DNA of 27,042 nucleotides from a virus (taxonomy: Duplodnaviria > Heunggongvirae > Uroviricota > Caudoviricetes): the IMG/VR virus record IMGVR_UViG_2751185961_000011. One strand, given 5' to 3'. Shown piece by piece: positions 5,090 through 21,414 of the stretch. Below the pieces are notes generated by a model. The model made no database searches. It worked only from the letters and a program-made list of their open reading frames with translations, and was not told the DNA's origin. A program made the position numbers and the translations under genes. Each line of letters starts with the position of its first letter. Position 1 is the first letter of the stretch.

Positions 5090-5313
5090 AAGGTGACGGT
5101 GATGGCTTTGGTTTATTTCACATCAACGGCACCGACAGTACCGCCATCAGCTGGTCATCGTCAGAGATGGCACTGGTTCTGGAAATGACAACCCACAGCG
5201 TGGCCGTGAAAGGCATATACACCGCAGAAGACTTTATCGGTGAATACCAGCGCCTTCTCGTGCTGTACCGCGCGGCGTTTCAGGAGGTCACTGGCGGGGA
5301 GTACGACGCATGA
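4948..5313 (+). CDS. Hypothetical protein immediately upstream of and coupled to gene A (start uncertain; GTG at 4948)
   Basis: ORF ends with an ATGA overlap onto the gpA start at 5310. No canonical ATG near its 5' end. Confidence 0.4.
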   Translation: MGGGSPAGFPPEQLARLLPPRCKQAARSITTYGDFSFTVDGRYRVDVKGDGDGFGLFHINGTDSTAISWSSSEMALVLEMTTHSVAVKGIYTAEDFIGEYQRLLVLYRAAFQEVTGGEYDA

Positions 5314-8093
5314 GTGACCGCAATGCACAGCTGGCGTACCCGTGGAACGCACCGCTACCGGTTATCGATCCTGAAACGTTCGGCAGAGCACAACCAACCG
5401 CATTACGCCAGGCCATTCAGAGCTACATCAACGAGGACATTCGCATTGATGCCAGACTGGATGAAGAAACCGTCTCCTTCCTGACAAACACAGACGAAGG
5501 CAAGCGAATTAATTCGCACCTTCACCACGACGAAGAGCGTCGGATCAGACTGGAAAAACTGGCGCGGCACAAACGCGAAAATCCGCCAACGCTGGTATCG
5601 GAAGCCATGGCAGAACTTCGCGCCCTGCCCTCGTTTCTTGGTAACGCGCTCATTCGTGATCTGGCGCGTTTAAACCGCAAACAACAAAGCGCCCGCAATG
5701 AAGGCGTGAAAAACAACAACACTCACGTGGCCGATAACTTCGTTCGCCGTGGACTGCGCACACGCCTGAAACGCATCGAACAGGTGAATGAATGCTTCGC
5801 CACGACAGCATTCAAAGCCACCGCAGCACGCCATCGCCTTGATGAATTACTCATGCTGCCACAACTCAACCGTAATCAAATTCAGCGCCTTGCCACACTA
5901 ACGGCGGCGGCATTTTCCACCGAACTGGAACGCATATGTGATGAAGTTACTGAGCGGACAGGAAAAGGCGACGATAACCTGTTTACCTGGTTGCTGACTT
6001 ACCAGCAGCTGGCGCGCATGGCAATAAAACTGGGCGTGAACCCACCATACTGGCCGTCACTCGAGATCAGACGTGACCGCCGCACGGCACCAGACCCTGA
6101 ACTGGTACCGGGCGCGGTAATGCGTATCACCTGCGCCACCTGGTGGAACAACCAGCTGCGCCACCTCGCTGATCTCTGGCGGGAGGAATTACTGCGTGCC
6201 GCCGGAAGAGTATCGCGCAAGGCATCCCCCTACATCAGCCATGAGTCACTCCAGGAATTCCGGGAGAAACGCCAGCGCACCCGTGATTTTCTCAAAAGCT
6301 GGGACATTGAAAACGAAGACGGTGAACGCCTGAGTCTGGAGGACGTGTACTGGTCAGGGCTGGGGAATCCGCGCAACCGCCGCAACGAGATGATGGCCTG
6401 CGTCAGAGGGATGGAACAGGTCGCCGAATCGCGTGGTGACTCCGCGTTCTTCGTGACAGTAACCTGCCCTTCCCGCTTTCACAGCGTGAACGAGGACGGC
6501 AGCCTGAACCCGAAATACAACGGTGCCACCGTGCGCGATGCCAGTGATTATCTGGTTTACGACGTCTTTGCAGCTGCAAGAAAAAAACTCAACAAAGAAG
6601 GCCTGAGCTGGTACGGGGTGCGCACCGTTGAGCCACACCATGACGGCACACCGCACTGGCACATGCTGGTATTCACCGCCCCGGACAATGAAGAACGCAT
6701 CATTGAAATCATGCGTGACGCAGCAATCAAATCAGATCGCGCAGAACTGGGGGATGATATTTCTCCGCGCTTCAAATGCGAAAAAATCGACCCGGCAAAA
6801 GGCACACCGGCAAGTTACATTGCAACCTATATCGGCAAGAACCTGGACGCCAGCGCCTTCCATAACAATGACCCGAAAACCGGCAAACCTTACGCTGATG
6901 AGGAATCCGGAAAAACCATGGCGGAAACTGTGGAAAATGCCATTGCCTGGGCGAGCCTCCACCGCATCCGCCAGTTCCAGTTTTTCGGTATCCCGCCCCG
7001 CCAGGTATGGCGTGAACTGCGCCGTCTTGCCGGACAGATGGAGCGAAACCCGGCATCGCCAAAGCGCATCGACAATGACGACATTGATGCCATTCTGGCC
7101 GCCGCAGATGTGGGGTGTTTTGCCACCTACATGACTCGCCAGGGTGGTGTGAATATTCCGCGCAACCTGTATCTGATCCGCACCGCATACGAAACCGCAG
7201 ATGAGGCCAATGATTACGGGGAATTTCCTCAACGTATCTGGGGAATATGCGCCCCGTCGCTCGGCGAGCGCTACACCATCTGTACCCATCCGGACGAATG
7301 GAAACTGGTCAGAAAAGAAGCGAAATCCGACAACAGCACGGACGAGGGTTTTGACGTTGGGGGCGGCTTCGCCGCACCTTGGACTCGTGGCAATAACTGT
7401 CCCCGTGTACAGGAAACAGGCAACAGCGGGACAGAACAGTCGGAAGAGCAACCAACACCGTGGACGCAGATCCCTGACGGCGTTGATGTGGATGAGTGGA
7501 TGCGCTCACTGAAACGGCACGAACGCCGGGCGCTGATGCGTTCGCTGCGTGACAAACAGGCAAAAAACAGCAGTGATGAAATGCAGAACTGGACACAGAG
7601 CCGCAAACAGCCACGGCCTTTGCCTGATAACCACGAGTTACTCGCTAAAGAATGGCGGGAGTCTGCCGAATCTCTCGGCCTGCATATCGGTGAACAGCAG
7701 ATGCAGTACCTGTTACGGGGCGGCACTCTGTACGTTGACGGCAGCATCATTGCACCGCAGGGATTTGAAATTGTACGCAAACCGGATACCCGCCCGGACA
7801 GCCGAATCACGCAGCTCTGGCAGCGCCTGAGCCGTAATCACGGCGTAAGCAGCACGGAGATCCGCCATAACCCGGTCGCCAGCTATCTGGAGCAGCTCGG
7901 GGCATCAGACCCCGAAGCCGCCGCACGCCTGGCATCCACAATTCAGCAGGACCAGAACACCATGAAAACTCCCGTTACCGTGCTTTCTGACATGCTGCGC
8001 GCCATCCGTGACACAGAGCACGCACAAAGAATCAATGAAACCACTGAACGCGCCCGCCGCAAGGCTACTTTGCTCCAAAAGAGAGGCAAATAG
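5310..8093 (+). CDS. A: Rolling-circle replication initiator endonuclease (P2 gpA-like)
   Basis: 927-aa ORF. HUH motif HWHMLVF (His codons 6654-6662). Paired catalytic tyrosines Y-IAT-Y in SYIATYIGKNLD (Tyr codons 6816-6818 and 6828-6830), matching the phiX174 A / P2 A RCR motif 3. Position between the early genes and the hotspot matches P2. Confidence 0.9.
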   Translation: MSDRNAQLAYPWNAPLPVIDPETFGRAQPTALRQAIQSYINEDIRIDARLDEETVSFLTNTDEGKRINSHLHHDEERRIRLEKLARHKRENPPTLVSEAMAELRALPSFLGNALIRDLARLNRKQQSARNEGVKNNNTHVADNFVRRGLRTRLKRIEQVNECFATTAFKATAARHRLDELLMLPQLNRNQIQRLATLTAAAFSTELERICDEVTERTGKGDDNLFTWLLTYQQLARMAIKLGVNPPYWPSLEIRRDRRTAPDPELVPGAVMRITCATWWNNQLRHLADLWREELLRAAGRVSRKASPYISHESLQEFREKRQRTRDFLKSWDIENEDGERLSLEDVYWSGLGNPRNRRNEMMACVRGMEQVAESRGDSAFFVTVTCPSRFHSVNEDGSLNPKYNGATVRDASDYLVYDVFAAARKKLNKEGLSWYGVRTVEPHHDGTPHWHMLVFTAPDNEERIIEIMRDAAIKSDRAELGDDISPRFKCEKIDPAKGTPASYIATYIGKNLDASAFHNNDPKTGKPYADEESGKTMAETVENAIAWASLHRIRQFQFFGIPPRQVWRELRRLAGQMERNPASPKRIDNDDIDAILAAADVGCFATYMTRQGGVNIPRNLYLIRTAYETADEANDYGEFPQRIWGICAPSLGERYTICTHPDEWKLVRKEAKSDNSTDEGFDVGGGFAAPWTRGNNCPRVQETGNSGTEQSEEQPTPWTQIPDGVDVDEWMRSLKRHERRALMRSLRDKQAKNSSDEMQNWTQSRKQPRPLPDNHELLAKEWRESAESLGLHIGEQQMQYLLRGGTLYVDGSIIAPQGFEIVRKPDTRPDSRITQLWQRLSRNHGVSSTEIRHNPVASYLEQLGASDPEAAARLASTIQQDQNTMKTPVTVLSDMLRAIRDTEHAQRINETTERARRKATLLQKRGK

Positions 8094-8190
8094 CACTTTA
8101 GTAATCAAAATGATGATGAGAAAAAACAATTACAAAGTTGGATATGCCTTTTCCATCATGAGGGATGAGATGTGAATCGCTAACCGAATA

Positions 8191-8220
8191 TTGTGTTGAA
8201 TAGAATGCAATTGATATAAT
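8191..8220 (+). promoter_or_regulatory. Candidate sigma70 promoter for the island operon
   Basis: TTGTGT (8191-8196), 18-nt spacer, TATAAT (8215-8220) in the AT-rich region upstream of the island methyltransferase. Found by eye only. Confidence 0.3.
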
Positions 8221-8353
8221 TCCCCTTAATTCATTGAAAACTGGATTTTTTGCATAACTATGCAAATATCTATGGACGGCGACGATGTTTTTTATCGGGA
8301 AAACTCAAGTGCCATGTTAAGATTATGTTTATTTTTTACTGAGAAAATCGTGG

Positions 8354-9199
8354 ATGACAAAGCCTTCTCATTTTAGAACCCCTCTTCGTTATCCGGGAGG
8401 TAAGGCAAAATTCTTGCCACATATTGAACAAATACTCCGCAACAATGATCTCATTGGTGGATGTTATGCTGAACCTTATGCAGGTGGAGCCGGTGTAGCA
8501 TTAGGTTTGCTCCTTAACGGTCTTGTTGAAAATATCTTCATAAATGATATTGATCCTGCCCTTTATTCTTTTTGGTTTGCAGTGGTTAATCATAACGATC
8601 TGTTATGTGAAATGATTGATGAAGTTCCTGTGACTATTGAAAATTGGCATACTCAAAAGGAGATACTCCTAAACAATGATAAATATAGTATGCTTGAAGT
8701 CGCATTATCTACTTTCTTTTTAAATAGAACAAACCGTTCAGGAATACTTAAGGCTGGCGTTATTGGAGGGAAAGAACAAAAAGGACCATGGAAGTTAGAT
8801 GCAAGATTCAACAAAAAAGAGTTAATTAAAAGGATTGAACTAATTGGTGCATATAAGGAGAAAATTTACGTATCGAATTTTGATGCTGCAGATTTTCTGC
8901 TACACCAAAAAGCATTACTACCCCAAAATAGTCTAATATATCTTGATCCACCTTATTATGTTAAAGGAGCAGAGTTATATAGAAATTTTTATAAACATGA
9001 TGATCATGTAAAAATCGCTAATACACTACGTGAAATTCAACTACCTTGGGTTGTGTCTTATGACAATGTGCCTGAAATAAAAAGCATATATCATGAATTC
9101 AACATGACTGATTATACGCTTAATTATACTGCACAAGATAAGAAAAAAGGTCTAGAAATTATCATTTATAATCATGGTATAAAAATCCCTGACATTTAA
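8354..9199 (+). CDS. Dam-family (D12-class) N6-adenine DNA methyltransferase, island copy
   Basis: N-terminal PLRYPGGKAKF and AEPYAGGAGVALG (SAM-binding motif I). DPPY catalytic motif at 8945-8956. 281 aa. AT-rich codon usage unlike the rest of the prophage. Confidence 0.85.
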   Translation: MTKPSHFRTPLRYPGGKAKFLPHIEQILRNNDLIGGCYAEPYAGGAGVALGLLLNGLVENIFINDIDPALYSFWFAVVNHNDLLCEMIDEVPVTIENWHTQKEILLNNDKYSMLEVALSTFFLNRTNRSGILKAGVIGGKEQKGPWKLDARFNKKELIKRIELIGAYKEKIYVSNFDAADFLLHQKALLPQNSLIYLDPPYYVKGAELYRNFYKHDDHVKIANTLREIQLPWVVSYDNVPEIKSIYHEFNMTDYTLNYTAQDKKKGLEIIIYNHGIKIPDI

Positions 9200-9216
9200 A
9201 TTTAAGGATGATATAG

Positions 9217-10914
9217 ATGATTAAAGAAATTAGTTTTAAAAAATTTAAGAAACTGATAGATATTGACTTCTCATTCAATGAAGACATCAATATAATATCA
9301 GGAACCAATGGGACATGTAAGACAACATTGCTTCATTTAATTAGCAATGGTTTCCAAATACCACCATCTAGATCACAAAATTATTCAAATAGTAATTGTG
9401 TTAGAGTTATAAAATCTATAAACAAAATAGCCAACCCAAAAATGGAAGCAATTGTTAGGGAATCAAAAAATTACACCGATCCGGCAGAGGGAACAAAAGG
9501 TGTGTTATTTTCTATTAACTATTTGGATCATAGCACACTAGACTTCAGAAAGCACAACTCAAAAAATCCAGACGAAGCGCAACGGTATGCTATCAAACCA
9601 GTATACCCACGCGGAAAAGAAAAACAATCACTTCCAGCTAAACCAGTTTTATATCTTGGATTATCGCGACTATTCCCGATTGGTGAAACTAAAGACGACG
9701 CCCTTACAAAAATTCCGTTAAACCTACCAGAAGAGTATGTTGGTTATATATCGAAAATATATAATGAACTTTTGGGCATTAATATTATAAATATAGAATC
9801 AAACAATATCGGAGATTTTAAAGCTGGCCCATTATTTGATACCGATAACCCAGCAATTGATTCTAATACCATATCATCCGGGGAAGACAATATATTCATT
9901 ATAATCAAGGCATTAGTTAGCCTTAGGTATTATTTTGAATCACTTATTCAATCCACTGATCAAAAAGAAAGCATTCTGTTAATAGATGAATTTGATGCCA
10001 CTTTACATCCTTCTTTACAGATAAGATTATTAGATAAAATTTATCAATACGCAAAAGATTATAAGATTCAAGTATTTTTCACAACGCACAGTCTGACATT
10101 GCTAGAATATGCTTTTCATAAAAAATACCATGTTGTCTATCTAATTAACAATATTACAAAGGCTCTGCTTTTGGATAATCCTGATATATTAAAAATAACA
10201 ATGTATCTGAAAACACAAACAAAGGATGAGATATACACAAGGAACAAGATACCAGTTTTCACGGAAGATGAAGAAGCTCGCTTTTTATTTAATGAAATAC
10301 TTGGTTATTGGATAAGCAAATATCCAAATTTTGCTATAGTTAGTAATTCATTTCACTTAATTGATTGTTTCATTGGTGCAGACAATTTAAAAACTATTTT
10401 TAATGATTCTCATCTTAAGGAAACCTCGTTAAAATCAATTTGTATTCTTGATGGAGATCACAGCCCTGAGGATCAGAGAGGAATTATATCACTGCCGGGT
10501 GAAAAAGCTCCAGAACAATTGATATTTGAGCATTGTGAGCACCTTTATAATACCGACGACTCTTCCTTCTGGGAAAATCAGGATATAATTAACAATGGTT
10601 TTTCGAAAGAGTTATACTTACTCAAGATACGTCCTCAATTACAATCAATTGAAACTGAAATTCAGAAAAGAAAAGACAACCATGAGTCTACATCCGGTTT
10701 AAGAAGAAAATTAAATAAGAAAATATTCAATCAGCATATTGAATTCTTTAGAATGATTACAAGAAACTGGTTAAACAAACCAGAAAATCAGAAATCTCTC
10801 CAGTATTTTTACAATGGATTACGATCCTTATTCTACCGGGTTACACCAACAAACGGCATTGACAGAAAAATTTGGGATTTTGACTATAACAAAATCATTA
10901 AAGAGGATAAATAA
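9217..10914 (+). CDS. OLD-family-like ABC-type ATPase with putative C-terminal TOPRIM nuclease domain
   Basis: Walker A GTNGTCKTT (9301-9327). Walker B LLIDEFD (D-E codons 9985-9990). H-loop-like VFFTTHS. C-terminal acidic motifs VFTEDEE (10255-10275) and ILDGDHS (DGD at 10450-10458) fit the TOPRIM glutamate plus DxD pattern. 565 aa, close to P2 Old in size and in the P2 old locus. AAGGA RBS 7 nt upstream and 17 nt after the methyltransferase stop. Confidence 0.75.
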   Translation: MIKEISFKKFKKLIDIDFSFNEDINIISGTNGTCKTTLLHLISNGFQIPPSRSQNYSNSNCVRVIKSINKIANPKMEAIVRESKNYTDPAEGTKGVLFSINYLDHSTLDFRKHNSKNPDEAQRYAIKPVYPRGKEKQSLPAKPVLYLGLSRLFPIGETKDDALTKIPLNLPEEYVGYISKIYNELLGINIINIESNNIGDFKAGPLFDTDNPAIDSNTISSGEDNIFIIIKALVSLRYYFESLIQSTDQKESILLIDEFDATLHPSLQIRLLDKIYQYAKDYKIQVFFTTHSLTLLEYAFHKKYHVVYLINNITKALLLDNPDILKITMYLKTQTKDEIYTRNKIPVFTEDEEARFLFNEILGYWISKYPNFAIVSNSFHLIDCFIGADNLKTIFNDSHLKETSLKSICILDGDHSPEDQRGIISLPGEKAPEQLIFEHCEHLYNTDDSSFWENQDIINNGFSKELYLLKIRPQLQSIETEIQKRKDNHESTSGLRRKLNKKIFNQHIEFFRMITRNWLNKPENQKSLQYFYNGLRSLFYRVTPTNGIDRKIWDFDYNKIIKEDK

Positions 10915-10990
10915 TGTATTCTAATAGAATATAAACATCAAAGCTATATTTTTTACACATATCAAGAGTAAAAAATAATTTAACTTTTAC

Positions 10991-11030
10991 ATAACGACCT
11001 CTTTTACAAATAAGTAGAAAAGGTCGTTAT
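10991..11030. repeat. Imperfect 17-nt inverted repeat (hairpin) downstream of the island operon
   Basis: ATAACGACCTCTTTTAC (10991-11007), loop AAATAA, GTAGAAAAGGTCGTTAT (11014-11030); 15 of 17 positions complementary. Possible terminator or operator. Confidence 0.4.
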
Positions 11031-11153
11031 AACTCTCATCTCCATAGCATGTAATTTTCTTTGCATATTTTCACATAACAGTCAGGGATGTATTTATAAG
11101 CAACGTCGTATACATAGGCTCAATTTTTCTATAAATAAGCACTCCGTTCGGTT

Positions 11154-11180
11154 TGCACAATAATGCACAAATTTGCACAA
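11154..11180. repeat. Three direct TGCACAA heptamers phased at exactly 10 bp
   Basis: TGCACAA at 11154-11160, 11164-11170 and 11174-11180, followed by a T7 run, at the AT-rich to GC-rich transition before the cos-proximal region. Confidence 0.45.
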
Positions 11181-11471
11181 TTTTTTTGAACGACTTTTTG
11201 CCCTTTCGGCCCGCATGGCGGCTGGATCCGTCAAGGATCGTGCGTGCACAAAAAAAACGCGTTTTCTGCGCGCAGGCGACGAGGGAAGGGCGCCCGAATT
11301 GAGGGGTGGAAGGCAGGTTGCTTTATTTGGGGTCGTATTGCGCGTGATACGCCAGCAGTGAAGCCTGTTTTAAAAAACCACATCAAAACATGGTCAGGGA
11401 AACAGGCCGTCAGAATGCGTCTGGCGAGGTCGGAGATCGGGAGGGAAACGGACGTCAGGAGCTGGAGAGTC

Positions 11472-11494
11472 GGGGCATAAATTTTTTATGCCCC
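11472..11494. repeat. Perfect 10-bp-stem palindrome just downstream of the portal gene stop
   Basis: GGGGCATAAA (11472-11481) and TTTATGCCCC (11485-11494) with a 3-nt loop. Could be the Q-P operon terminator or a cos-associated element. Confidence 0.5.
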
Positions 11495-11521
11495 GGCGAA
11501 GCAGCCGACAAGCGAAGCGCG

Positions 11522-12565
11522 TCAGCTGGCGCCATCCTGAAGCAGCGAATAGGGATTAAAGCGCATCACTTCAACCCCAAGCCATTCATTGACATGCTTC
11601 ATCGCTTCCATGACCGGTTGCAACTCGTTGATGAAAAATACCCTCGCCGCCTTCTCAACGTCACCGAACGCCGCGTTCCCGTCAGGCATTGCCCCCATCA
11701 GCTGAGGCGGTACACGGTGAGCCGCAAGGATATCGTCGCGGGCACTCCCCTTGATGTTAAGGAATTCGTCCTTCGCGGTGATTTGCTGGAACGGCAGTAT
11801 TTGCACACCATCCTTGCCGCCACCTGGCGCGTGCAGAAGGATATTGCGGAACGCCCCCTTGCCACGGGATTCCGTGAGTGTTTTCTTGATGGCTTCCACG
11901 CTTTCAGCGTTTGCCTGGGCGGCACCAACATAGACAATGCACCCGGCATGTGAACCGTTGTCATAGTAGAGCTTGCGGAACGTATCCGCTGAGTTCGACA
12001 GACTCACCGACAGCACCCCACCGATATACTCCGGCATCCCGTAGATTTCCTGGTTGATATCGGGGTTCAGAACGTGGCACACAGCCCCCTTACGGAAAGC
12101 AAATTCAGAACCATCATCATTGAGGTACCAGTACGTATCGAGATCACTGCCCCGCCGCGTGTATTTCGCCAGCGCAGGACGAAGCGCAATGGGTTCACCG
12201 AACTTGTTGCGGCGGACTTCAAGATAGGCATTACCGAACACGAACCAGTCCAGCGCAAACGCGGAAAACGCCTGGCGGGACAGTAGCAGATGAGGAACAA
12301 AGCAGCCGTTCAGGGCATTACGCTTAAAATACAGGGCCGACTGGTGCCATGATGCACGACGTGAGGCGCGAGCAATGGCATTCCAGTCCATGGGGGTGTC
12401 ATAGTAGCGGCCATTATCGGCGCACGACATGTTATCAAGAAGATCAAGACGGCTTGCTTCATAAGGACCGTCAAACGTGAAAGCACTGAGTGACGGCGCT
12501 GATTTCAGTGCATCAGCCAGTGAGCCCGTGCCGCGCTTTCCGGTGTATTTTTTACGTTTACTCAT
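11522..12565 (-). CDS. Q: Portal protein (P2 gpQ-like)
   Basis: 347 aa on the minus strand, immediately downstream of the large terminase gene; size and position match P2 Q (about 344 aa). Basic N-terminus MSKRKKYTGKRG. Confidence 0.88.
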   Translation of the reverse strand: MSKRKKYTGKRGTGSLADALKSAPSLSAFTFDGPYEASRLDLLDNMSCADNGRYYDTPMDWNAIARASRRASWHQSALYFKRNALNGCFVPHLLLSRQAFSAFALDWFVFGNAYLEVRRNKFGEPIALRPALAKYTRRGSDLDTYWYLNDDGSEFAFRKGAVCHVLNPDINQEIYGMPEYIGGVLSVSLSNSADTFRKLYYDNGSHAGCIVYVGAAQANAESVEAIKKTLTESRGKGAFRNILLHAPGGGKDGVQILPFQQITAKDEFLNIKGSARDDILAAHRVPPQLMGAMPDGNAAFGDVEKAARVFFINELQPVMEAMKHVNEWLGVEVMRFNPYSLLQDGAS

Positions 12566-12570
12566 TGTGT

Positions 12571-14304
12571 TCAGAACTCCATTGCAAAGCCACGATTATC
12601 CTCACGCTCTGCGCCGATTGGCTCATTGATAACAGCAAGCATGGTTGCCCAGGCGAGATCACCATGACTGACACTGCGTGAGCGGTCAGTGTCATAGGTG
12701 ATATAGCCGCCGGGCGTCTGTATTTTTCGCACCGATGCAAAGGCCTGTACCAGGTCGCGCTCGCTGCGGTCATACTCCCAGCGTCCGGCACGGACCACCT
12801 GAAGCATCTTCATGACCAGCGCCCGCTTTGAAGCGATATTAAAGTTATACGGAACAGCCAGGGGGAAGAATTTTTTCACTATCTGATAAACCCCTTCCCC
12901 GTTCCCGCCGGTCACATCAATCCCGATATGCTTCACATTGTATTTTTGGGTGTACTCCTCAATCAGGGCCGCCTGCTGTTCAAACTCCATGCCCTGAACC
13001 CTGACGGTTTCCACCGTACGAAAACGCCCACCGGCAACAAGGGGTGGCACGCACACCGACAGCGCCCCGCAGTCCCCCTTCCCGCTGCTGCCGTTGGCGT
13101 CATACCCGAGCCAGACTTCCCTCACCCCCATAGGGCGGACAGCAAAAGGCTTCCAGTCCGGCCATTCGTCATAGCCATCAACACCGCACCCGACGAGCGT
13201 ATTCAGACTGAAGGCTGCCTCACCATCACGGACAAATTCGCACATGTACAGATTGCGAAATTCACTTTCTGTATTTTCGCCGCGAATATCATCAATACTG
13301 GTGAACTGCCATCCGTTAGCGACAGCATCCTCAATGGTGACAATCTGCCGCCACGTTTTATCGGGAAAGAGCACGCCCCCCTTCAGGTGGGCATGTGAAA
13401 CATCAAATTCATTGCGTTTTGAGCGCGGCCGCTCGCTGTTCCAGCGGTCCCCTGTCCAGAACTGATACGCCTCATGCGTCTCACCTGACGGCGTAGAGAA
13501 GTAAGTGCGCGTAAGCCCTTTCAGCGTCGCCATTGCCCCGGCAACCTTCCTGAGGTTCACAAAGTTACTGACCCAGAAAAATTCGTCGAATTTCAGATGA
13601 CCGGTATAGGACTGCGCGGTGGCAGCTGACGTACCGAGGAAGTGCAGCTCCGCGCCGTTGGACAGCACGATCTTGTCGCCCCCTTTCAACTCAACATCCA
13701 CTTCCAGCGCCGCCTGCTGAATAAAATGCTTGAACTGATACGCCTGACGACGGGAGGCGGATAAAAATATCTGGTTGCGCTGATACCCGGCGGAGACATC
13801 ATCACGCAGTGCATCAAGGAGCGCCTCGCGCGCAAAATACCAGGTCGCACCAATCTGACGCGACTTCAGGATCATGCGGTTGCGGTGGTGGCGGTTTTCG
13901 TACCATTCACGTTGATGCCACGCCAGCGTCGGGAGGATTTTTTCACGAAGCGCGACAATCTGTTCTTCGGTGAAGTGATTTTTCAGTCTGCGTTTACGGG
14001 GCTTTTTACCGGAAACGGCCTGTTCTCCCTGACCGTCATTCAGTTTTTTCAGCTGGCGCGTGAGAAGGTCAATTTCCTTAAAATCGCTGCCGCTTTTCTC
14101 TGTTTTTGTGGTGAGCTGGATCAGGCGCGCATCAATGGACTGGGTGACCCGCTGGATCGGAGGTGTGGCATCCCACTCATCGCGTTTTTTCCATGAGTAA
14201 ATCGTGTTCTGGCTGATCCCCATCAGTTGCGAGATTTCCGCAGGTGTGTACCCTTGCCAGTAAAGTTGTCTTGCCCTTATGCGGACAAGTGCATCCTGAA
14301 TCAT
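12571..14304 (-). CDS. P: Terminase large (ATPase) subunit (P2 gpP-like)
   Basis: 577 aa. N-terminal HTH-like YTPAEISQLMGISQNTIYSWKK. Transcribed divergently from O, as in P2. Confidence 0.88.
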   Translation of the reverse strand: MIQDALVRIRARQLYWQGYTPAEISQLMGISQNTIYSWKKRDEWDATPPIQRVTQSIDARLIQLTTKTEKSGSDFKEIDLLTRQLKKLNDGQGEQAVSGKKPRKRRLKNHFTEEQIVALREKILPTLAWHQREWYENRHHRNRMILKSRQIGATWYFAREALLDALRDDVSAGYQRNQIFLSASRRQAYQFKHFIQQAALEVDVELKGGDKIVLSNGAELHFLGTSAATAQSYTGHLKFDEFFWVSNFVNLRKVAGAMATLKGLTRTYFSTPSGETHEAYQFWTGDRWNSERPRSKRNEFDVSHAHLKGGVLFPDKTWRQIVTIEDAVANGWQFTSIDDIRGENTESEFRNLYMCEFVRDGEAAFSLNTLVGCGVDGYDEWPDWKPFAVRPMGVREVWLGYDANGSSGKGDCGALSVCVPPLVAGGRFRTVETVRVQGMEFEQQAALIEEYTQKYNVKHIGIDVTGGNGEGVYQIVKKFFPLAVPYNFNIASKRALVMKMLQVVRAGRWEYDRSERDLVQAFASVRKIQTPGGYITYDTDRSRSVSHGDLAWATMLAVINEPIGAEREDNRGFAMEF

Positions 14305-15312: not shown

Positions 15313-16407
15313 ATGGGAAACCGCTTAACGCTTTCTCGCGAAGGCCGCAGCAATCTTGAGGCCTATCTTGCACGCCAGGCAGAACTGGCCGAAACCACCG
15401 TAGAACGACTGGGGAAAACCTTCAGCGTTGATCCGGCTGTTCATCAGAAGATGGAAAACGCCATCAAAGAGAGCGACGAGCTGCTGAAAAGAATCAACAG
15501 CATCGGCGTTGACGATCAGGAGGGTGAAAAAGTCCTGGTGAATACCAGCGGCCCCATCGCCAGCACCAACTCAACCAGTGACGGCGTGAAGCGACGCAAT
15601 CCCGCTGACGTCTCTGATCTGGCATCGCGTCGTTATCGCTGCGAACAGGTGAACTACGACACTTTCATCAGCTACGCACAGATTGACGCGTGGAGCAACC
15701 AGAAAAACTTCCAGCAACTGCTGAGTGCACAAATCACCCGACAGATTGCACTGGACCGTATCATGATTGGCTTTAACGGTGAGTCGCACGCCATCATCTC
15801 CGATCGTTCTGCCAACCCGAAACTTCAGGACGTTAACACCGGGTGGCTGAAACACATCCGTGAACACGCCACGACGCGTGTCGTGAAGGCAATGACGCTG
15901 ACCCGTCGCGATCATGAAAACAAACTGGTTGCAAAAGGTGACTACGGCAACGCTGACGCGATGGTTAACGACATTCGTTCTTCCGTACTGGATGAGTGGC
16001 ACAAGGACGCCCCGGATCTGGTTGTTGTCATGGGCCGCAACCTGTTCAACACGCTGCGTCTGCCTATGATTAACGCCATCAGCACCACCAACCCGAACAC
16101 GGAGCTGGTCGCCGGACAGCTGATTACAGCCTCCCGCACCATTGGCGCGCTGCCGACCTTCTTTGCGCCGTACTTCCCGGACGATGCCATGCTGATCACG
16201 TCGTTCAGCAACCTTTCGGTGTACTTCCAGAAAGGGTCACTGCGTCGCTTCATCCGTGAAGAGCCGGAGTACAACCGTATCGCCACCTACCAGTCCATGA
16301 ACGACTGCTACGTGGTGGAAGACTACGGCAAGTGCGCACTGATTGAGGGCATTTCTTTCGCCGGTGAAGATCCGGAAGACAAGAAAGAGGCAGAAGCACA
16401 GGCGTAA
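15313..16407 (+). CDS. N: Major capsid protein (P2 gpN-like)
   Basis: 364 aa (P2 N is about 357 aa) directly after the scaffold gene. Confidence 0.88.
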   Translation: MGNRLTLSREGRSNLEAYLARQAELAETTVERLGKTFSVDPAVHQKMENAIKESDELLKRINSIGVDDQEGEKVLVNTSGPIASTNSTSDGVKRRNPADVSDLASRRYRCEQVNYDTFISYAQIDAWSNQKNFQQLLSAQITRQIALDRIMIGFNGESHAIISDRSANPKLQDVNTGWLKHIREHATTRVVKAMTLTRRDHENKLVAKGDYGNADAMVNDIRSSVLDEWHKDAPDLVVVMGRNLFNTLRLPMINAISTTNPNTELVAGQLITASRTIGALPTFFAPYFPDDAMLITSFSNLSVYFQKGSLRRFIREEPEYNRIATYQSMNDCYVVEDYGKCALIEGISFAGEDPEDKKEAEAQA

Positions 16408-16415
16408 CGCATCAT

Positions 16416-16435
16416 GGCGGGCACATGTGCCCGCC
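16416..16435 (+). other. Perfect 20-nt palindrome (stem-loop) immediately after the capsid gene stop
   Basis: GGCGGGCACATGTGCCCGCC with no following T-run. Likely an RNA structure affecting capsid transcript stability or read-through. Confidence 0.5.
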
Positions 16436-16456
16436 GGTTAATCAGGAGTCGAATAC

Positions 16457-17266
16457 ATGCTGACACCGGCACAACGATACCTTCAGCGCGCGATGGCGCA
16501 TCATCGGGCTGATCCATTCAATCGCGAAGAGCAGCGAACACGAACGGCACATGAACAGGTTCTTCACCAGTTACGCCTCGCACAGTTGCAGCTGAATGGC
16601 GTGCAGTCAAACATCGCGAAAGCGGAGCTGAAGAAGCACCTGATACCGAATTTTGAAGGCTGGATCGACGGCACACTGGCAGGCGACAGCGGACGCCAGG
16701 ACGAAGTCATTACCACCATGATGGTGTGGGCCATTGACTGCCGGGATTATCCGCTGGCGCTGCGTATCGGTGAGTACGTTATTCGTCACCGGCTGGCACT
16801 GCCGGACAACTTCGGGCGCGATGCGGCGACCGTACTCACCGAAGAAATTGCCGAAGTTGTGCTGACAGAAGCCGCCACCAACAGCGAAACCGACTTATCC
16901 GGCTATATCCGTATGCTGGACGAGCTGGATGCACTGGTTCACGACCAGGACATGCCGGATCAGGTTCGTGCAAAACTACATAAGGCGCGGGCATTTTCAC
17001 GGCGCGCATCAGGCAGTACGGAAGACATGACTGTGTCACTTGGTCTGCTGCGTGAAGCCATGCGCATTAATCCGGCAGCGGGCGTGAAGCGTGAAATCGC
17101 CACGCTGGCCAGAAAGGTATCAAAGGTTCAGCCGGAACCGGAAAAACCGGCAGAAGAGAAAAGTAAATCGAAAGCAACATCAGGGCGCAAAAAGCCGACT
17201 ACAAAAGCGACGGCCAGAAAAGCCACGAAAAAAACCGCCGCAAAACCGGCGCGCAAGGCGACCTGA
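16457..17266 (+). CDS. M: Terminase small (endonuclease) subunit (P2 gpM-like)
   Basis: 269 aa at the gpM position, with a Lys/Ala/Thr-rich basic C-terminal tail (KKPTTKATARKATKKTAAKPARKAT). Confidence 0.8.
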   Translation: MLTPAQRYLQRAMAHHRADPFNREEQRTRTAHEQVLHQLRLAQLQLNGVQSNIAKAELKKHLIPNFEGWIDGTLAGDSGRQDEVITTMMVWAIDCRDYPLALRIGEYVIRHRLALPDNFGRDAATVLTEEIAEVVLTEAATNSETDLSGYIRMLDELDALVHDQDMPDQVRAKLHKARAFSRRASGSTEDMTVSLGLLREAMRINPAAGVKREIATLARKVSKVQPEPEKPAEEKSKSKATSGRKKPTTKATARKATKKTAAKPARKAT

Positions 17267-19434: not shown

Positions 19435-21414
19435 ATGAGCAAAAAACACTTTGAACTGATTACTGCCACCAACCGCGCAGAATTCGCTGAAAAAGTTAAC
19501 AAGCGATTACAGGAAGGCTGGGAACTTCTCGGTAATGCCGGTATTGCATCAGAGCCGGGAGTCCCCTGGTATCTCATGCAGGCTATGGTTTCAGGCAGTG
19601 ATGACCAGGGAGGCACCATTATCACCCCGACATCCGACAGAGAACCGGAGTGGTATTACGTTGTGGTGAGCGCTGGTCAGTCCAACTCTATGGCATACGG
19701 TGAGGGGTTACCTCTCCCGGACAGTTACGATAAACCCGATTCGCGCATTCGCCAGCTGGCACGCCGCAGCACCGTAACCCCGGGCGGAAAAGCCTGTGCC
19801 TATAACGACATCATTCTGGCGGATCACTGCCTGCATGACGTGCAGAATATGAGCCAGTACAACCACCCGAAAGCCGACCTGAACAAAGGTCAGTATGGCT
19901 GTGTGAGTCAGGGATTGCACATTGCGAAGCGCCTGCTGCCATTTATCCCGGCAAATGCGGGGATCCTTCTGGTCCCATGCAGCCGTGGCGGTTCCGGCTT
20001 TACAACCGGTGATGCGGGGCAATTCAGCGAAATCGGCGGCGCAACTGAAAAATCCTGCCGCTGGGGAACGAACACGCCGCTGTACAAGGATTTAATCAGC
20101 CGCACAAAAGCAGCGCTGGCGAAAAATCCGAAAAACGTCCTGCTGGCCGTCTGCTGGACACAGGGCGAGGCAGATCTTGAGAAAGAACAAAACGCCGCAC
20201 AGCATAAAGATCTTTTCACAGCCATGGTGAAGCAGTTCCGGGCTGACCTGGTCGATGTTGCGAAGCAGTGCAACCAGGGCAACCAGGGCAACCCTGAAAG
20301 CGTGCCGTGGATTTGTGGAGATACCACCTACCACTGGAAAAAAACCTACGAAGCACAGTACGCAACCGTGTATGGCGGATACAAAAACAGCACTGAGAAA
20401 AATATTGTTTTTGTGCCTTTTGTTACGGATGAGTACGGGAAAAACACCCCAACAAACGAGCCGACAGAAGATCCGGATATTGCGGAAGCGGGTTATTACG
20501 GTGCCGCATCCCGCAGTAGCGGAAACTGGGTAAGCCATCTGCGTGGAACGCACTTCAGCTCATGGGCCCGCCGGGGCATTATTGCCGATCGCATGGCGTC
20601 AGCAATCCTGCTTAACGTCGGCCGCACGCTGCCATTTATTGCGGGTACAGAGCCGGAACGCGTGGCAAAACCATCACAGGATGCACCGGGCGGCATCAGT
20701 AAGCCATCTTCACCGGAAGCAGAACAACCGGCAGTCAGACCGGGGCCGGTCACGCTCATGAGTCTGCTGGCATCATCTCCTGAACTGGAAAGCCAGGGCT
20801 GGACGCTGAGCGAAGGCAAAAACGGGGCCAACACACCAAAACAACTGAAAGACACGCTGATCGGTGATGAGGAAGCAACAGGGAAAAAAGCCCTGAAACT
20901 GACCAAACAGGAAGGCAATACCTGGTATCTGGAGCATAAGGCCGGTAATGGTGCTGACCTTCTGAAAAATGGCGGGACTGTAAGTTGCCGATTCAAAATC
21001 GAGGGTGAGCTGAAAAAAGACCAGTACGCAATGGCGATGTACTGGAAAACATCAGCATTACCGCAGGATGTGAAATTACTGGGGGCAGATCCAAATAATT
21101 TATTGCTCTCATTCTTTCTTCAGACAGACAGCGCAAACCTGAATCTGATGTATCACAAAACGCCAAACGAACAACTGGGAACCTTTGGTCAGTTCAATAA
21201 CAACTGGCACACCATAGCGTTTCGTTTTGCGGGAAACAACAGCACCCAGGTAACACCGGTTCTGGATGGCGTGGACGGAAAACCGTTCATGCTTTCCACA
21301 TCAAAAGCCGATGTTACCAACGACACGTTACGCGTGACCGATATCACGTATCGGCCGACCTATACCGTACTGATTGACAGCCTGAGCGTTGTCGTAAATC
21401 AGCCACCGGCATAA
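19435..21414 (+). CDS. NanS-p-like protein: N-terminal DUF1737-like domain, SGNH-type sialate O-acetylesterase domain, C-terminal putative carbohydrate-binding domain
   Basis: 659 aa. SGNH block I motif in YYVVVSAGQSNSMAYGEG. N-terminal MSKKHFELITATNRAEFAEKVNKRLQEGWELLG resembles the DUF1737 leader of prophage NanS-p esterases. AGGAG RBS. Confidence 0.65.
   Translation: MSKKHFELITATNRAEFAEKVNKRLQEGWELLGNAGIASEPGVPWYLMQAMVSGSDDQGGTIITPTSDREPEWYYVVVSAGQSNSMAYGEGLPLPDSYDKPDSRIRQLARRSTVTPGGKACAYNDIILADHCLHDVQNMSQYNHPKADLNKGQYGCVSQGLHIAKRLLPFIPANAGILLVPCSRGGSGFTTGDAGQFSEIGGATEKSCRWGTNTPLYKDLISRTKAALAKNPKNVLLAVCWTQGEADLEKEQNAAQHKDLFTAMVKQFRADLVDVAKQCNQGNQGNPESVPWICGDTTYHWKKTYEAQYATVYGGYKNSTEKNIVFVPFVTDEYGKNTPTNEPTEDPDIAEAGYYGAASRSSGNWVSHLRGTHFSSWARRGIIADRMASAILLNVGRTLPFIAGTEPERVAKPSQDAPGGISKPSSPEAEQPAVRPGPVTLMSLLASSPELESQGWTLSEGKNGANTPKQLKDTLIGDEEATGKKALKLTKQEGNTWYLEHKAGNGADLLKNGGTVSCRFKIEGELKKDQYAMAMYWKTSALPQDVKLLGADPNNLLLSFFLQTDSANLNLMYHKTPNEQLGTFGQFNNNWHTIAFRFAGNNSTQVTPVLDGVDGKPFMLSTSKADVTNDTLRVTDITYRPTYTVLIDSLSVVVNQPPA

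Follow-up and report, generated by a model that had tools for sequence, protein, structure and literature searches.

A conserved pair of a D12 methyltransferase and an ABC ATPase with a TOPRIM-like domain in the P2 tin/old hotspot: a candidate restriction-modification-like anti-phage cassette

The interval between gpA and the portal gene of P2-like phages is a hotspot for anti-phage genes according to two studies (PMC9519451; PMC9122126), and several described defence systems bear on what is found there. PD-lambda-5 is an experimentally validated two-gene system of E. coli that pairs a methyltransferase with a 'ParB/HEPN' protein, gave protection from almost every phage tested and was termed RM-like (Vassallo et al. 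2022, PMC9519451); its cloning needed a host deleted for the mrr region (PMC9519451) and, therefore, the PD-lambda-5 methylase is active in vivo. OLD nucleases are divided into classes by their context: genes of class 1 are solitary, those of class 2 are found with a UvrD-like helicase and those of class 3 with a retron reverse transcriptase (PMC10568477). HEC-04/IbfA is a validated defence in which a single gene encodes an ABC ATPase-TOPRIM protein, and which requires Walker A and an E/D/D metal site (Payne et al. 2024, preprint; PMC12111858). In a survey of 132 defence systems, OLD-type domains are present in eight systems and no methylase-linked form is included, and methylases are not mentioned by Rousset et al. 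2022 (PMC9122126). Here, we analyze a stretch of 27,042 nucleotides (nt) from a virus of the Caudoviricetes (IMG/VR record IMGVR_UViG_2751185961_000011; hereafter the window), in which the hotspot holds an AT-rich island (8094-11170) with two genes, one encoding a D12-class DNA methyltransferase (gene 1) and the other a protein of 565 amino acids (aa) with an ABC ATPase and a TOPRIM-like domain (gene 2).

We suggest that the two genes form a conserved unit, which is well supported, and that this unit is probably a defence system. Our preferred reading, to which we give about an even chance, is that the island is a mobile two-gene anti-phage cassette resembling a restriction-modification (R-M) system in which the methylase shields self DNA from an ATP-dependent TOPRIM nuclease. 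In this model, (i) the D12 methyltransferase would put N6-methyladenine on the DNA of the lysogen, the prophage included, (ii) the OLD-like ABC ATPase-TOPRIM protein would be an ATP-dependent effector that attacks DNA without the mark, and (iii) the effector may use the methylase or the methylation status for target discrimination, by analogy with Res and its partner Mod in Type III R-M systems. We infer DNA cleavage by the TOPRIM domain, protection from this cleavage by methylation and a role of the cassette in protection against phage. The R-M-like reading is favoured because the linkage of the two genes is tight and ancient, the dependence between them is asymmetric, the active sites appear intact, the locus is a defence hotspot and a sister system has been validated. 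The original prediction, which was made from the letters of this stretch, had proposed a defence cassette at this locus, and we judge that idea to be correct, with protection itself as the inferred part.

The linkage was analyzed by scanning one genome per GTDB species, which gave 80 loci with genes for relatives of the 565-aa protein. These loci span Proteobacteria, Firmicutes, Actinobacteria, Spirochaetes, Fusobacteria, Deferribacteres, Planctomycetes, Kiritimatiellae, Bipolaricaulota and one archaeon, and the lineages represented include Enterobacterales, Vibrio-like bacteria, Neisseria, Rhizobium, Desulfovibrio, many Clostridia and Bacilli, Mucispirillum, a planctomycete and a methanogen-related archaeon. 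A full-length methylase of the same family lies within 500 nt in 63 of the 80 loci, on the same strand in 59, and the two genes thus co-occur in other genomes. The remaining loci are five in which the methylase is 1.6-3.9 kb off with genes intervening, two with a methylase fragment only, nine in which the contig ends at the expected position of the methylase and which are uninformative, and one possible exception (L064) in which the ATPase gene is cut at the contig start and 5 kb downstream hold no methylase. The usual order is nuclease then methylase; adjacency is kept though the order flips, and the methylase-first order of the window is also present in Pantoea, Pluralibacter and four other loci. 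Moreover, pairwise identities of the two proteins correlate with r=0.70 (59 loci), a value reached in 0 of 2000 permutations of a Mantel test, and the correlation is still 0.45 for pairs under 60% identity. The family of the 565-aa protein comprises 123 clusters at 50% identity among 1.84 billion representatives (E up to 1e-30), and the pair also travels together in non-phage contexts. In total, the two genes have been passed on together in many phyla. The effector hardly ever occurs without the methylase, whereas the methylase is often found without the ABC-TOPRIM effector, as expected if the effector needs the methylase and not the reverse.

Some loci contain additional genes. In Rhizobium and Pseudorhizobium (L044 and L045, 222-7670), a HerA-like (DUF87) gene of 710 aa and a gene of 532 aa with no Pfam match lie between the methylase and the ABC-TOPRIM gene, and a gene with an AbiTii domain follows. 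Deposited phages and plasmids contain few homologues, all of them distant. One is in the P2-like Vibrio phage ValB1MD-2 (Peduoviridae; L100, 3108-7126), in which a 517-aa relative of the ATPase is convergent with a DNA adenine methylase, followed by two hypothetical genes; this cluster adjoins the repressor/cox immunity region, not the gpA/portal slot.

Gene 1 (8354..9199, + strand, 281 aa) encodes a D12-class N6-adenine DNA methyltransferase of the PD-lambda-5_B family, as indicated by its profile matches and motifs. The protein matches Pfam MethyltransfD12 (PF02086) with 1.7e-20 and 74.2 bits, compared with a cut-off of 22, and the S-adenosylmethionine-binding motif I (EPYAGGAG) and the DPPY motif (aa 198-201) are intact. 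Of all libraries, PADLOC gives the best match, to PD-Lambda-5_B over the full length (1.2e-121, 403.5 bits); the match to PADLOC MTase_II is at 2.1e-107. The methylase of L007, a PD-lambda-5 locus in the P2 hotspot, shares 52% identity with gene 1. The original prediction had described the protein as a Dam/D12 methylase with a DPPY motif. The D12 class and the motif hold, but the assignment to Dam is rejected because the TIGR00571 score of 71.2 bits is under the curated family cut-off of 114.85 and because a bona fide Dam is present elsewhere in the window. This second D12 methylase (1978-2955, + strand, 326 aa) belongs to the early operon, has a normal GC content and scores 226 bits on TIGR00571 against the same cut-off; it is just 23% identical to the island methylase. 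Therefore, the prophage encodes two adenine methylases of different families.

This second methylase bears on the possibility that the two island genes are independent neighbours, i.e. that a single-gene OLD/HEC-04-like nuclease stands beside an orphan methylase that guards the phage genome from restriction or alters host expression. Single-gene ABC-TOPRIM defences exist (P2 Old, HEC-04, IbfA), orphan phage methylases are common and hotspots often house several unrelated genes. However, the two genes are adjacent in most of the loci across phyla, non-phage contexts included, the two proteins co-diverge, the prophage already has a true Dam-family methylase and the family of the island methylase supplies a component that a validated two-gene defence requires. 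Independence is thus improbable. An independent anti-restriction methylase was one of two readings put forward in the original prediction, and it is disfavoured by the travel of the pair outside phages and by the Dam-family enzyme; the other, the linked R-M-like reading, is favoured over it because of the synteny and the co-divergence of the two genes.

Gene 2 encodes a protein that can be divided into three parts. The first (aa 1-335; 9217..10221, + strand) is an ABC ATPase head of the OLD/SMC type with a large insert, as indicated by matches to Pfam AAA_15 (4.5e-12), AAA_21 (1.4e-10) and SMC_N, by invariant motifs and by Foldseek. It contains the four elements that characterize OLD-family ATPases, i.e. 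Walker A, Walker B, signature and H-loop: G29/N31/G32/K35 (Walker A), S220-G222-E223 (signature), D257-E258 (Walker B) and H291 (H-loop) are invariant in 35 homologues with 45-83% identity. The second part is a putative TOPRIM-like nuclease domain (aa 336-449; 10222..10563, + strand), in which invariant E350/D351/E353 lie straight after a beta strand and D412-G-D414 straight after another, with the E...DxD residues likewise invariant in the 35 homologues; in the structural model, the pattern of E350 and D412-G-D414 corresponds to the TOPRIM signature. An ABC ATPase with acidic motifs in its C-terminal part had been proposed for this protein, in agreement with the AAA_15 and AAA_21 matches and with the conservation of these motifs. 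The third part (aa 450-565 plus the stop codon; 10564..10914, + strand) is a C-terminal helical domain that is predicted to be all-helical with pLDDT confidence values above 90, and its conserved residues are F451-W452, G494, R497, K501, W518 and W553. Judged from their sequences, both island proteins appear to have intact catalytic motifs.

Structural and profile comparisons connect gene 2 to ABC ATPase-TOPRIM proteins. Using the AlphaFold model of the whole protein (pLDDT 79), the top Foldseek matches are the retron Eco8 effector, Gabija GajA and the Thermus OLD protein TsOLD (E 3.5e-10 to 2.7e-9). The PADLOC model of HEC-04, the sole PADLOC model to match the C-terminal domain, aligns to residues 343-445 (3.1e-7), and the retron model 'ATPase-Toprim_I-B' aligns as far as residue 420. 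The AriAB, AriA and GajA models match the ATPase with ~1e-15, the AriAB match being limited to aa 239-311. Three results weigh against the TOPRIM assignment: Pfam searches with the isolated C-terminal domain of 22 homologues gave no TOPRIM, DUF4435 or OLD match at E up to 10 and returned noise only; a Foldseek search of the PDB with the confident model of the C-terminal domain returned nothing under E 0.4, with the OLD and AriB chains within noise; and hhalign of gene 2 against P2 Old aligned 61 columns around Walker B and none in the nuclease part. A family profile of gene 2 compared with PDB sequences matched the ATPase motifs and nothing else. Taken together, we regard a TOPRIM fold as the likely identity of this domain and are fairly sure of it. 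PADLOC v2 contains no dedicated model for the 565-aa family, the best match having 58 bits, and no restriction-enzyme family of Pfam or NCBIfam matches gene 2. Judged by sequence, gene 2 is not close to any named family and is only distantly related to HEC-04. We also considered that gene 2 might be a diverged P2 old gene; this identification was rejected because the nuclease part is left unaligned by hhalign. The original prediction had noted that P2 Old has no methylase partner, which is correct, and P2 Old moreover has no detectable homology to gene 2 beyond the ATPase core.

In complete E. coli genomes, PD-lambda-5 loci of the P2 hotspot span 2460 bp, with a gene for a 501-aa protein ahead of one for a 294-aa methylase. 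On PD-Lambda-5_A the 501-aa protein reaches 557 bits, and the scores of true A proteins on the PADLOC PD-Lambda-5_A models go up to 843 bits. In the window, component B is present but component A (ParB/HEPN) gave no match by tblastn or hidden Markov model search anywhere, and the cassette is for this reason not PD-lambda-5; with component A missing, PADLOC would presumably not call a complete PD-lambda-5 in the window. Relatives of the methylase at 52-60% identity are found with the PD-lambda-5 ParB/HEPN effector only (L007, L008, L089, L102, L103, L106 and L107), and those sampled at 56-60% identity are accompanied either by A only, as in a Pseudomonas integrative and conjugative element (ICE) and in Pectobacterium and Yersinia islands, or by A and a convergent ATPase. 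Of the 80 loci, 19 have a gene matching the PD-lambda-5_A profile beside those for the ATPase and the methylase, in varied order and orientation. Loci with all three genes include L009, L048, L023, L024, L029, L031, L041, L055, L065, L081, L090 and L104; the order is A-methylase-ATPase in Pantoea coffeiphila (L009) and A-ATPase-methylase in several Clostridia, and in Psychromonas and Vibrio the ATPase gene is convergent with those for A and the methylase. In total, one methylase family occurs with a ParB/HEPN effector, with an ABC-TOPRIM effector or with both and, thus, constitutes a modular family.

Several observations weigh against the R-M-like reading. PD-lambda-5 acts best against T-even phages, which are resistant to most classical R-M systems (PMC9519451). 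The relatives P2 Old, GajA, HEC-04 and PARIS need no methylase for their action, and their control is exerted by nucleotides or phage proteins. In the 19 loci in which PD-lambda-5_A shares the methylase, the methylase may serve either effector. A domain for reading sequence was not identified in the 565-aa nuclease. Finally, DNA is only the presumed target, and AriB, reported to be a tRNA nuclease (PMC12409363), is among the structures that the nuclease domain matches best.

The AriB-like fold and the three-gene loci are also what speaks for the main rival, in which the cassette is a methylase-linked abortive-infection guard. Here, a PARIS/PrrC-like ABC-TOPRIM sensor-effector would be restrained by the methylase or by normal methylation; its release by a phage product such as a DNA mimic, an anti-methylase or an anti-restriction protein would lead to cleavage of tRNA or another host nucleic acid and growth would stop. 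However, most loci, the window included, have just the methylase and the ATPase and no separate restriction enzyme to guard; the methylase alone gives no defence and would serve purely as bait or antitoxin; and gene 2 has no match to Pfam DUF4435, the AriB domain. We consider this guard model unlikely, if less so than the other alternatives, and retain the R-M-like reading.

The composition and the surroundings of the island point to mobility. The GC content is 31.9% over 8094-11170 (33.7% in the methylase gene and 31.5% in the ATPase gene) compared to 54.3% for the remainder of the window, close to the ~30% and ~50-55% estimated by eye beforehand; among 179 other stretches of 3077 nt the mean is 54.5% with a standard deviation of 1.4% and a minimum of 50.9%, and the island is the sole AT-rich block within the 27 kb. 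The GC contrast and the borders of homology define it as an AT-rich cargo island (8094..11170, unstranded) in the gpA/portal (tin-old) hotspot. Its upstream neighbour is the gene for the Phage_GPA replication endonuclease (5310-8093, + strand, 927 aa, 2.6e-108), and its downstream neighbours, both on the - strand, encode the portal protein (11522-12565) and the large terminase (12571-14304), i.e. the island occupies the interval where phage P2 has tin and old, as had been recognized. Exactly two long open reading frames are present, both on the + strand, at 8354-9199 (281 aa) and 9217-10914 (565 aa), which confirms the two co-oriented genes 17 nt apart that had been reported between gpA and the portal gene.

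Comparison with the prophage of E. coli AR_0013 (L001) and with prophage L108 identifies a segment exchanged by recombination (7408..11290, unstranded) that consists of the 3' end of gpA and the island. The region 7500-11290 is 94-100% identical to the AR_0013 prophage, whereas the structural genes are just 66-70% identical; the island itself is 99-100% identical between prophages with structural genes at 66-70%, and the segment exchanged with L001 comprises the island and the last ~600 nt of gpA. L108 has the same backbone, with 97.9% identity over 11 kb; homology is gone over 7408-11153 and resumes at 11154, and the cargo of L108 in the hotspot consists of unrelated small genes (hypotheticals, MarR-family, SSB). 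Most P2-like gpA genes of E. coli are homologous to the backbone only up to 8062-8066, ~30 nt before the gpA stop, and cargo cassettes therefore seem to bring their own gpA 3' end. The gpA protein of the window has 927 aa, that of P2 has 761 aa, and the Phage_GPA domain covers residues 190-514 only. In L001, the portal gene (15513-16559) carries an internal stop and the annotation lists it as a pseudogene, while the cassette is intact; this prophage copy is probably defective given the portal pseudogene. When the structural genes were compared with deposited phages by megablast, no match was obtained.

The island is present at >=98% identity in 15 of 5426 complete E. coli genomes and always adjoins the replication endonuclease gene. 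The same methylase-first cassette, with the same spacing of 17-18 nt between the genes, also lies just inside tyrosine-integrase islands at smpB/ssrA in Klebsiella, Salmonella and E. coli (L092-L099). Some of these smpB-island copies have a conserved gene of 237 aa without Pfam match ahead of the cassette, and the methylase call in the Salmonella copy L096 is shortened to 195 aa. Together, these comparisons show a cassette that is mobile between defence hotspots, in P2-like backbones as well as in integrase islands.

Mobility of this kind could also reflect a selfish addiction module, in which post-segregational killing stabilises the prophage or island and phage exclusion is a side effect. 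R-M pairs can act as addiction modules, the cassette is seen here only on mobile elements (P2-like prophages, integrase islands, ICE-like contexts) and its sequence is near-identical across diverged backbones. Such a module would, however, use the same mechanism as the R-M-like reading and be compatible with defence, and the known occupants of the hotspot are anti-phage genes. Addiction as the primary function appears quite unlikely to us, and we continue with the R-M-like reading.

Possible signals for expression of the cassette were also noted. A possible extended -10 promoter element, TGATATAAT, is present at 8212..8220 (+ strand), ~135 nt 5' of the methylase start; it was called from a perfect consensus match only and its function is putative, and a generic promoter scan gave no enrichment compared to shuffled sequences. 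The 17-nt intergenic spacer (9200..9216, + strand) contains a Shine-Dalgarno sequence AAGGA (9204-9208) 8 nt ahead of the second ATG, and the two genes are arranged like an operon. A hairpin at 10991..11030 (+ strand), 77 nt past the ATPase stop, has 17-nt arms that are 88% complementary and a 6-nt loop; because it has no T-run, we propose it only as a possible transcription terminator. An Rfam search of 7900-11700 gave no RNA family, and a repeat scan gave short repeats at chance level and this hairpin, nothing else. Between the lysis and tail genes, the window also encodes a 659-aa protein with a DUF1737, a SASA-type carbohydrate esterase domain and a DUF6645 (19435-21411, + strand), and this gene is also present in the related E. 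coli prophages L001 and L108.

If the R-M-like reading is true, the cassette would be a widespread two-gene module, from Enterobacteria to Firmicutes and at least one archaeon, that current defence finders overlook; of it, they would see no more than an orphan 'PD-Lambda-5_B' methylase. OLD nucleases would gain a methylase-linked context. It would also help to explain PD-lambda-5, in that one methylase family would have two alternative effectors, sometimes together, and the natural variants would make the 'RM+Abi' idea, i.e. R-M combined with abortive infection (Abi), testable. More speculatively, and with somewhat less than even confidence, we propose that the 565-aa protein is a true restriction endonuclease with a TOPRIM fold driven by its ABC ATPase, that it constitutes with the D12 methylase a new ATP-dependent type of R-M system and a fifth, methylase-linked class of OLD proteins, and that, with the ParB/HEPN effector of PD-lambda-5, it belongs to a modular family whose effectors are interchangeable or stacked and share one methylase. 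To our knowledge, no TOPRIM restriction endonuclease has been described, and the protein would then be the first restriction-type nuclease with this fold.

How does the cassette compare with the known systems? With PD-lambda-5 it shares the methylase family, the P2 gpA/portal hotspot and the organization as a two-gene AT-rich cassette; the effector of PD-lambda-5, however, is a ParB/HEPN protein of ~500 aa, whereas the window has an ABC ATPase-TOPRIM protein instead and the methylase gene comes first. HEC-04 resembles gene 2 in having an ABC ATPase followed in one chain by a C-terminal domain that is TOPRIM in HEC-04 and likely so in gene 2, but the match is weak and partial (58.4 bits; aa 249-445 to profile positions 230-409 of 494), making gene 2 a distant relative and not a member, and HEC-04 acts as a single gene, is found embedded in Hma systems and has no D12 methylase partner. 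P2 Old and the Class 1 OLD proteins share the P2-like hotspot and, with TOPRIM as the likely fold in gene 2, the layout of ATPase and TOPRIM, and TsOLD is among the top whole-protein fold matches; Class 1 genes, however, are solitary and the 565-aa family is almost always methylase-linked. Gene 2 fits none of the OLD classes 1-3, given its D12 methylase partner in 63/80 loci and the lack of an adjoining helicase or reverse transcriptase in the window. PARIS (AriA/AriB, or the fused AriAB), Gabija GajA and the retron Eco8 effector combine an OLD-type ABC ATPase with TOPRIM, and both domains are structurally similar to those of gene 2. The differences are that gene 2 has no DUF4435 match and no helicase or reverse transcriptase partner, and that none of these systems has a DNA methylase partner; of the combination that defines PARIS (a DUF4435-type TOPRIM, PF14491, with AAA_15/21), gene 2 matches the ATPase part and not DUF4435.

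The pair is also comparable to systems with which the likeness is one of organization. Type III R-M systems are a functional analogy, as a methylase and a nucleoside triphosphate-dependent nuclease form a two-gene unit. No homology of the cassette proteins to Type III R-M was detected; Res combines a superfamily 2 helicase motor with a PD-(D/E)XK nuclease, and Mod is not of the D12 class. The three-gene variants resemble R-M loci with embedded Abi genes (PrrC, RloC, AbiL), in which an extra nuclease likewise stands beside a methylase system. The pair of a methylase and an ABC-TOPRIM protein is absent from PADLOC v2, from the 132-system survey and from the literature searched, a coverage that leaves the comparative genomics of Krishnan et al. 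2020 outside. The description of the system as undescribed in the original prediction thus stands for the specific pair within this coverage, but not for its parts, as the methylase family (PD-lambda-5, in the same hotspot) and single-gene ABC-TOPRIM defences were already known. The novelty of the cassette lies in the specific pairing, and its parts and its logic are familiar.

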